Part shown: one piece after another, positions 39,331-39,630 of the stretch
Layout: each line of letters starts with the position of its first letter
How positions within the stretch are numbered: position 1 is the first letter of the stretch
Origin: a virus
Taxonomy: Duplodnaviria > Heunggongvirae > Uroviricota > Caudoviricetes
Virus record (IMG/VR): IMGVR_UViG_2802429246_000002
Length of the DNA: 47,096 nt
Strand: one strand, 5' to 3'
Made by a program: the position numbers and the translations under genes
Notes under the pieces: generated by a model
The model's input: only the letters and a program-made list of their open reading frames with translations
Databases searched by the model: none
What the model was told of the DNA's origin: nothing

Positions 39331-39630
39331 GTGAAAAAGTTAAGCCGACTTGAAAAATATCACATGAACAAGGTTTCAATGCGCAGTCCGTCAAAGATTG
39401 TCGCCGTTACTCCTGCGGCGATAGAGATCGAAAAACGCGCGATTGAAAGAGAGAAAAAAGGGCAGTTCCGCATTGCCGCTCACCTTTGGCTTCAGTGTAT
39501 GGATGTTGCTTCTGGTGATGTTGAGCGTGCGAGGATCGCGGTTCGCAGGGACCAATGTATCACAAAAGGTAACGGCCTTCGCCGTGGCGACTATAGCGGC
39601 ATAGGATGTTGTGGGGTGGTTTATGACTAA
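39331..39630 (+). CDS. PerC/Pch-family transcriptional regulator-like protein
   Basis: Segment AIEREKKGQFRIAAHLWLQCMDVASGDVERARIAVRRDQCITK parallels the PerC-family core as recalled; GTG start. Confidence 0.45.
   Translation: MKKLSRLEKYHMNKVSMRSPSKIVAVTPAAIEIEKRAIEREKKGQFRIAAHLWLQCMDVASGDVERARIAVRRDQCITKGNGLRRGDYSGIGCCGVVYD

Follow-up and report, generated by a model that had tools for sequence, protein, structure and literature searches.

The DNA analysed here (the window, 47,096 nucleotides at its full length) contains a phiV10-like prophage adjoining guaA, which is the integration site used by ZX5 (PMC9782041). On the + strand, the prophage carries in succession a repressor gene, a terminator, a promoter-like site, small ORFs, genes for a RecE-like nuclease and RecT, an AlpA/Xis gene, a membrane-protein ORF, a PerC-like gene, an MT-A70 methyltransferase gene and a DUF1382 gene. 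The features on which our analysis draws, with the evidence for each, are as follows.

35975..36559, + strand: prophage repressor gene (HTH_3; profile match)
36580-36599, + strand: terminator 3' of the repressor gene (promoter/terminator scan)
36616-36632 and 36678-36694, no strand assigned: two operator palindromes, ATTACC-N5-GGTAA (motif search)
36651..36679, + strand: early-left promoter-like site, TTGACA-17-AATCAT (consensus scan)
38973..39221, + strand: AlpA-family excisionase/regulator gene, xis (profile match); its stop overlaps the next start (ATGA)
39218..39334, + strand: 38-aa membrane-protein ORF; ends in a TGA that shares bases with the GTG of the PerC-like gene (GTGA)
39331..39630, + strand: PerC-family gene, orthologue of phiV10 p34 and epsilon15 gp31 (profile matches, alignments, dN/dS)
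39331..39411, + strand: N-terminal extension of its product, aa 1-27, Uetakevirus-specific and absent in PerC/Pch (alignments, AF2, dN/dS)
39412..39573, + strand: three-helix PerC/ANR-like core, aa 28-81 (Pfam aa 35-80, ANR aa 35-77, AF2, BFVD superposition)
39574..39627, + strand: conserved C-terminal tail, GLRRGDYSGIGCCGVVYD (alignments, AF2)
39623..40273, + strand: MT-A70 family DNA adenine methyltransferase gene; its first 8 nt are also the last 8 nt of the PerC-like gene
40270..40464, + strand: DUF1382 gene, the final gene of the early-left operon (annotation)
40468..41718, - strand: P4-type tyrosine integrase gene, convergent with the operon (annotation)
41911..43488, strand unstated: guaA, adjoining the prophage (flank)

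The PerC-like gene encodes 99 amino acids between a GTG start and a TAA stop, and is a translationally coupled, conserved member of the early-left operon across the relatives examined. Its identity, gene structure, family and operon context are as good as certain. The 38-aa ORF that precedes it has a predicted membrane segment, is itself translationally coupled, and is kept in phiV10 (p35), epsilon15 (gp32) and Tyrion.

One of the two operators (36616-36632) lies upstream of the -35 hexamer of the early-left promoter and the other (36678-36694) overlaps the -10 hexamer; both the motif and this layout are those of annotated repressor sites in epsilon15. A crude consensus search, which could miss a weak internal promoter, found no promoter-like site other than 36651-36679 on the + strand from the repressor gene to the PerC-like gene, and between 36700 and 41700 neither another promoter-like site nor an operator motif. 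Because the gene lies inside a repressor-operator-controlled operon and has no promoter-like site of its own, its expression in a lysogen is unlikely, and from this anatomy it is probably expressed only on derepression, that is, during induction or infection. The region from 36500 to 41900 has no match in Rfam. PADLOC returned nothing for the PerC-like protein and matched only the methylase (Type II MTase models).

Palindromes of the ATTACC-N5-GGTAA type are found at about 15 places in the prophage, with 28 strand-matches at one mismatch or fewer against 0.35 expected. The sites are at 6692, 7812, 7905, 8951, 26647, 27264, 29983, 30001, 33555, 33617, 35519, 35904, 36616, 36678 and 41761. Judged by position against the ORF list they look mostly intergenic; sites after the tailspike gene and upstream of the terminase genes are among them, as is one close to the prophage end on the guaA side. 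The repressor, or some other protein that binds this sequence, may therefore control many promoters beyond the two sites of the immunity region.

Public records differ as to where the PerC-like gene starts: PGAP places the start at an ATG at 39379 (83 aa), and the RefSeq record of phiV10 uses an ATG at 39364 (88 aa). In epsilon15, an ATG stands at the exact position of GTG 39331, and the upstream sequence cagagaGG and the start/stop overlap are also kept; the start in Tyrion is two codons earlier than the equivalent of this GTG. Homologues of 60-78% identity conserve residues 1-16 (Y10 without exception, H11 almost so) but not M12 or M17. When 36 phages were searched by tblastn, the alignments opened at residues 1-3, except for one that opened at residue 9. 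N-terminal codons 2-27 have a dN/dS of 0.3-0.4. These sequence comparisons support the 99-aa reading from GTG 39331 over the RefSeq models of 83 and 88 aa, whose start codons appear to lie too far downstream, 16 codons (E. coli copies) or 11 codons (phiV10) past the conserved start. The start positions compared correspond to 39331-39381 of the window, with counterparts at 6480 and 5465 of two comparison loci that we fetched.

Over the whole gene, dN/dS is 0.11-0.18 in comparisons with epsilon15, Tyrion and a Klebsiella prophage, where synonymous sites are near saturation, and the ORF is therefore a functional protein-coding gene. A decaying or non-functional ORF that merely keeps a family signature would be compatible with lysogens that have no reported phenotype (PMC9782041) and with a start codon that is disputed among public annotations. 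However, such a reading is at odds with the purifying selection, with an intact gene that is syntenic over several host genera, and with an identical protein that is recorded on more than 1000 contigs. We consider it hardly credible, and the selection analysis excludes it.

The gene is the orthologue of phiV10 p34 (YP_512289) and epsilon15 gp31 (NP_848239), to whose products its own is 98% and 78% identical over all 99 residues. Its product also matches PHROG 868, 'transcriptional activator', with residues 1-99 on profile positions 1-99 (E 6.4e-62). The phiV10, epsilon15 and PHROG 868 members occupy the same operon slot and differ from the window gene in nothing of substance beyond their start models. 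As an annotation, the gene is already known and widespread: RefSeq WP_001335975 is named 'PerC family transcriptional regulator', and PhiV10p34 was annotated from PF06069. A region of 1.4 kb is 98% identical to phiV10, ZX5, O157 typing phages 9 and 10 and other Uetakevirus genomes; for ZX5, identity in the region of the PerC-like gene is 98.3%. The gene is present in 560 of 5426 complete E. coli genomes, carriers that include many ExPEC, ETEC and commensal strains, and its nucleotide sequence is 100% identical to the copy in E. coli CU532-9. Carriers of the 100% identical copy include an E. coli O4:H5 strain.

The same gene position is seen in Uetakevirus phages and in prophages of Escherichia, Salmonella, Enterobacter and Klebsiella, as well as in one further related prophage. 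Gene order is kept in epsilon15 and also at 59-62% protein identity (Enterobacter phage Tyrion, a Klebsiella prophage and one further prophage), and it survives a change of methylase family or the insertion of small genes. A literature search found no experiment on this gene or its orthologues.

The earlier note had assigned the protein to the PerC family on the motif FRIAAHLW...ERARIAVRRDQCITK. This motif is present in the ORF at 39331..39630 (+), and the assignment is borne out by the family profile as well as by the RefSeq name: residues 35-80 match positions 5-50 of the roughly 90-position Pfam model PF06069 (PerC) with an E-value of 6.1e-7 and 30.1 bits, above the gathering score of 22.6 bits. 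The orthologues in epsilon15 (gp31) and Klebsiella score 24.2 and 25.4 bits, respectively. By BLASTP, the protein is 40% identical to EPEC PerC (plasmid pMAR2) over 60 aa (E 2e-10). Similarity of this order greatly exceeds what chance would produce.

For comparison, we used PerC of pMAR2, PchA, PchD and PchE of strain Sakai, and YfdN of K-12. PerC and the three Pch proteins match the full PF06069 model, positions 1-90, with 124-153 bits, whereas for the window protein, its orthologues in epsilon15 and Klebsiella, and YfdN the match is confined to the core, from position 5 to about 50, with 24-36 bits; a match of the window protein to the whole model, C-terminal half included, is absent. Nine residues (A37, E41, G44, R47, A49, W53, R66, R73 and C76) are invariant in PerC, PchA/D/E, YfdN and the phage branch. 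Identity to PchA is only 28%, too low for an orthologue of Pch group 1 (PchA/B/C), and no pch gene was matched when the 5426 E. coli genomes were searched with the nucleotide sequence of the PerC-like gene. Because only the core of the PF06069 model is matched, the protein belongs to a separate branch rather than to the Pch type; it is a family member by curated threshold, yet by sequence no orthologue of a Pch group.

EPEC PerC and EHEC PchA/B/C (PF06069 group 1) have the three-helix core in common with the window protein, and their genes are also small, horizontally transferred and phage- or plasmid-borne. In contrast to them, the window protein has no C-terminal half of the model, and instead has an N-terminal extension of 27 aa and a conserved tail of its own. 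The settings differ too. Whereas pchA stands alone next to the lysis cassette of the lambdoid prophage Sp4, and perC is located within the perABC operon of pEAF, the window gene belongs to the early operon of a podovirus. PchD and PchE are PerC-family proteins of phage-related elements that are 25-32% identical to the window protein, but they reside in a satellite or an island and not in the early operon of a complete phage.

In Sakai, pchE (6772-7044 of the fetched locus) is found in the 15-kb satellite-like element Sp7 between ssb/primase and capsid genes, and pchD (9877-10146 of its fetched locus) is found in SpLE1 directly 3' of the pair formed by ibrA (PAPS-reductase-like) and ybdM. PerC-family genes thus occupy quite different sites in these mobile elements.

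YfdN of CPS-53/KplE1 and its homologues in SfV and ST64B are phage-borne as well and match the PerC core alone (36 bits, positions 5-56). However, YfdN is only 29% identical to the window protein over 49 aa and starts with a domain of its own, 95 aa long, in which a weak MarR-like signal is seen; its gene follows the replication genes in the early-right region rather than belonging to an early-left operon. A profile search of 1.84 billion representatives gave only 57 matches, most of which are fragments of the gp31 branch or PerC proteins with the core alone. Two others (P0130 and P0143) are long proteins with FIVAR or other repeats and look spurious.

The product is predicted to be an all-helical protein of 11 kDa. 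In the AlphaFold2 model, the pLDDT averages 70.7 overall and about 87 in the core, and helices are placed at residues 28-42, 46-59 and 63-81. The N-terminal extension consists of two short predicted helices with a conserved KYH...AVTP. At the other end, the tail of the phage branch (consensus RRGDYSGIGCxGVVYD) stands in place of the C-terminal half of PerC/Pch, a half that anti-silencing activity may require. AlphaFold predicts this tail to be disordered, and in the AF2 model of the window protein the prediction of disorder covers the final 12 residues. Tail residues Y88, G90, G95, V96 and Y98 are invariant within the Uetakevirus subfamily and have a weak echo in PerC (NYSDI..GVY).

A sequence search of the PDB found no solved relative of the protein, and Foldseek against the PDB returned only weak similarity to MIT/TPR-like three-helix peptide-binding modules (E above 0.3) and no HTH. 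Among predicted viral structures (BFVD), the best matches are ANR-type proteins of 60 aa, one of them named 'ANR family transcriptional regulator', which superpose with an rmsd of 0.5-0.9 A over 53-56 residues. The NCBIfam ANR model NF033650 matches residues 35-77 on profile positions 7-49 of 54 with 23.6 bits (E 3.4e-5), which does not reach the curated cut-off of 32 bits. PerC, PchA, YfdN, epsilon15 gp31 and the window protein all give sub-cut-off matches to this model in a common register, with E-values from 3e-5 to 5e-2. The ANR signature A-x3-E(+)-x7-A-x3-W (PMC4983702) fits A37/E41/K42/A49/W53. When the seven key ANR residues (A10, E14, A22, W26, A29, W43 and R47; PMC4983702) are mapped by hand, A37, E41, A49, W53 and R72/R73 fit, whereas A29 corresponds to C56 and W43 has no counterpart. 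From profiles and predicted structure, we take the core to be homologous to PerC/Pch and, more remotely, to the ANR proteins. An overlap of PerC-like and ANR proteins has previously been pointed out for a PICI-encoded protein (PMC11773190).

ANR proteins have AraC-type regulators and H-NS as binding partners (PMC4983702, PMC5570504), and the likeness just described raises the possibility that the phage protein is an anti-activator of this kind, whose core would bind the central region of an AraC/XylS regulator, or H-NS, and damp host regulons while the phage grows. In that case it would be a repressor acting through sequestration and not an activator. The register-consistent matches to NF033650, the fit of the signature and the near-perfect superposition with ANR-type phage proteins all agree with this, as does the finding that a PICI PerC-like protein silences LEE1, for which an ANR-like action was proposed (PMC11773190). 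However, the score is below the NCBIfam cut-off, and two of the seven key residues (A29 and W43) are unmatched. Known ANRs, such as Aar of EAEC, form the same type of three-helix bundle with the same signature but are smaller than 10 kDa, while the window protein (99 aa) has additional conserved termini. No AraC/XylS-family gene was found among the neighbouring genes and the other ORFs scanned, which cover part of the prophage. We consider an ANR-like anti-activator unlikely, though the least unlikely of the rival explanations.

In YfdN (8391-8882 of the fetched CPS-53 locus) and, more weakly, in P0169, a weak sub-threshold MarR-like wHTH is present N-terminal to the PerC core; PerC-core proteins with such a signal are about 150-165 aa long. 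The position of this wHTH ahead of the core suggests that the core itself is not the DNA-binding part, and hints that the PerC-type core is an interaction module, with DNA binding, where present, supplied by a separate domain.

The earlier note had gone further than family membership: since prophage-encoded Pch/PerC homologues activate chromosomal virulence loci in pathogenic E. coli, it supposed that this prophage may rewire host transcription. The nature of the host bears on this. The chromosomal flanks of the prophage (1-1400, with yfgH/yfgI, and 41900-47096, with guaA/guaB/xseA) share only 89-91% identity with each of the 5426 complete E. coli genomes, and in public records an identical YfgI protein carries the name Escherichia marmotae (cryptic clade V); on both counts, sequence assigns the host to E. 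marmotae and not to E. coli. The LEE-positive species E. albertii was considered as host and rejected, since the flank shares only 76% identity with it and an identical YfgI is on record for E. marmotae. An exact direct repeat of at least 12 nt that could represent attL/attR was not found between 1-5000 and 41650-42000. The left prophage junction should fall between yfgI, which ends at 1236, and an Rz-like gene (1489..1986).

On such a reading, a Pch-like activator would be expressed from the prophage and switch on ler/LEE-type loci in the lysogen. The protein is indeed a PF06069 member that has the nine invariant core residues in common with PerC and PchA, and phiV10 and TL-2011b infect LEE-positive O157 and O103 strains. 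However, it matches the first half of the PerC model only, with 30 bits in place of the 124-153 bits of every Pch, and its gene sits in an operon under repressor operators. The same position is occupied in phages of Salmonella, Klebsiella and Enterobacter, the gene occurs in ExPEC, ETEC and commensal E. coli, and the host here is E. marmotae. Lysogeny by ZX5 left HeLa adhesion and virulence unchanged, and its lysogens had no adhesion, biofilm, stress or virulence phenotype (PMC9782041). Even such full-length relatives as PchE and the PICI proteins fail to activate LEE1, and in one case LEE1 is repressed (PMC7369912, PMC11773190). The membership proposed in the earlier note thus stands, above threshold, but the virulence function drawn from it does not: a half-model match, a repressor-controlled operon and the absence of a phenotype in ZX5 lysogens leave the activation of chromosomal virulence loci by this copy unsupported, and we consider it very improbable.

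Studies of other family members point in several directions. Pch activates LEE1 solely via relief of silencing by H-NS/StpA/Hha, but it did not co-precipitate with H-NS and no direct contact was found (PMC4764244); 'anti-silencer' is therefore the name of a phenotype and not of a defined contact. Besides shifting metabolism, PerC of EPEC biases the fim recombinase switch (PMC5293775). PchE is a repressor of adhesins and increases flagellar expression, and it leaves LEE1 fusions unaffected (PMC7369912, PMC11773190). The PICI PerC-like proteins, for example that of EcCIEDL933/Sp7, do not affect LEE1 either, with the exception of EcCIMP1_025, which silences it (PMC11773190, PMC6092414) and is the protein for which its authors propose an ANR-like action (PMC11773190). 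The PICI proteins, PchD and PchE resemble the window gene in their phage-related carriage, and yet do not activate the LEE. Because PerC and PchABC activate, PchE and the PICI copies are neutral and EcCIMP1_025 silences, the family name is no guide to the direction in which a member acts. The label 'PerC family transcriptional regulator', which this gene carries in about one tenth of complete E. coli genomes and in several enterobacterial genera, should accordingly not be read as 'LEE activator', and this caution for annotation is the practical value of the result. To the existing annotation the present work adds the core-only branch, the probable repressor control and the conserved start 16 codons upstream of the RefSeq model.

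The explanation that we prefer is that the PerC protein of the Uetakevirus branch is an early phage factor that acts on silencers or host regulators during induction or infection, for which we see a nearly even chance. Removal of the repressor would allow transcription of the early-left operon, so that the protein would be made upon induction or infection and not in a stable lysogen. The three-helix core, which has no recognisable DNA-binding fold, could then act on other regulatory proteins or nucleoprotein complexes. Most likely, it would loosen silencing by H-NS/StpA/Hha, as Pch does, and this would alter transcription of AT-rich phage DNA, and incidentally of host DNA, at the decision between lysis and lysogeny. 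The protein would on this account be a phage-development factor rather than a virulence activator of lysogenic conversion, and by analogy with its relatives it most likely serves in phage development as a small protein that modulates H-NS-type silencing or host regulators.

The specific mechanism of anti-silencing, which we transfer from homologues, is more tentative than this general role, and the early-gene region of the phage, which is not especially AT-rich, speaks against it. A little more speculative is the proposal that the three-helix core and the disordered tail of this early protein together disarm H-NS-type silencing or a host AraC-type regulator, and that such activity is the ancestral phage role of the PerC family. 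If a role in anti-silencing or anti-activation during phage development is true, it would hint at the origin of the Pch and PerC virulence regulators.

Genomic position suggests another candidate function, that of an accessory factor for the adjacent adenine methyltransferase or for an Int/Xis complex and not a regulator of transcription. The gene is flanked by xis/alpA on one side and by the methylase and integrase genes on the other, and overlaps the methylase start; in CPS-53, SfV and ST64B, a YfdN-type PerC-like gene likewise immediately precedes a Dam-type methylase gene; and one related prophage has a Dam-family gene in place of MT-A70 in the same region and has kept the PerC-like gene. 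The bias that EPEC PerC imposes on the fim recombinase switch (PMC5293775) is a further point in its favour. On the other hand, adjacency within a densely packed accessory region is weak evidence, a DUF1317 gene, a wHTH gene or both are inserted before the methylase in epsilon15, Tyrion and the Klebsiella prophage, and binding to a methylase or a recombinase is not known for any member of the family. We regard an accessory factor of this type as distinctly improbable, less so than the LEE activator and more so than the ANR-like protein.

Two unrelated PerC-core branches, the YfdN type and the gp31 type, each abut methylases of different families (Dam-type and MT-A70, respectively). The loci at which a PerC core and an adenine methylase are adjacent are CPS-53 of K-12 (8113-8882), SfV (2501-3642) and ST64B (2459-3876), all in coordinates of the fetched loci, and 39331-40273 of the window. 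This adjacency may have arisen by chance in accessory regions or may point to a functional link; its recurrence with DNA adenine methylases might reflect the latter.

As to the timing of the preferred phage-development factor, a role as late-gene activator was set aside in view of the early-left position of the gene and of another regulator gene upstream of terminase. The latter gene (30103..30444, - strand) encodes a 112-aa 'transcriptional regulator' (phrog_536, E 1.6e-54) and is located immediately upstream of the gene for the small terminase subunit, the position expected for a late-gene regulator, for which it is a candidate. With this separate candidate late regulator, there would be no obvious regulatory gap for the PerC-like protein to fill.

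Elsewhere in the prophage, the tailspike gene (3847-6588, - strand; 913 aa) has pectate-lyase-like and K1-lyase 'Rider' signals in its product, together with an endosialidase N-terminal domain below the curated cut-off. Because of these domain signals, the receptor specificity of this tailspike may differ from that of the O157-specific spike of phiV10.
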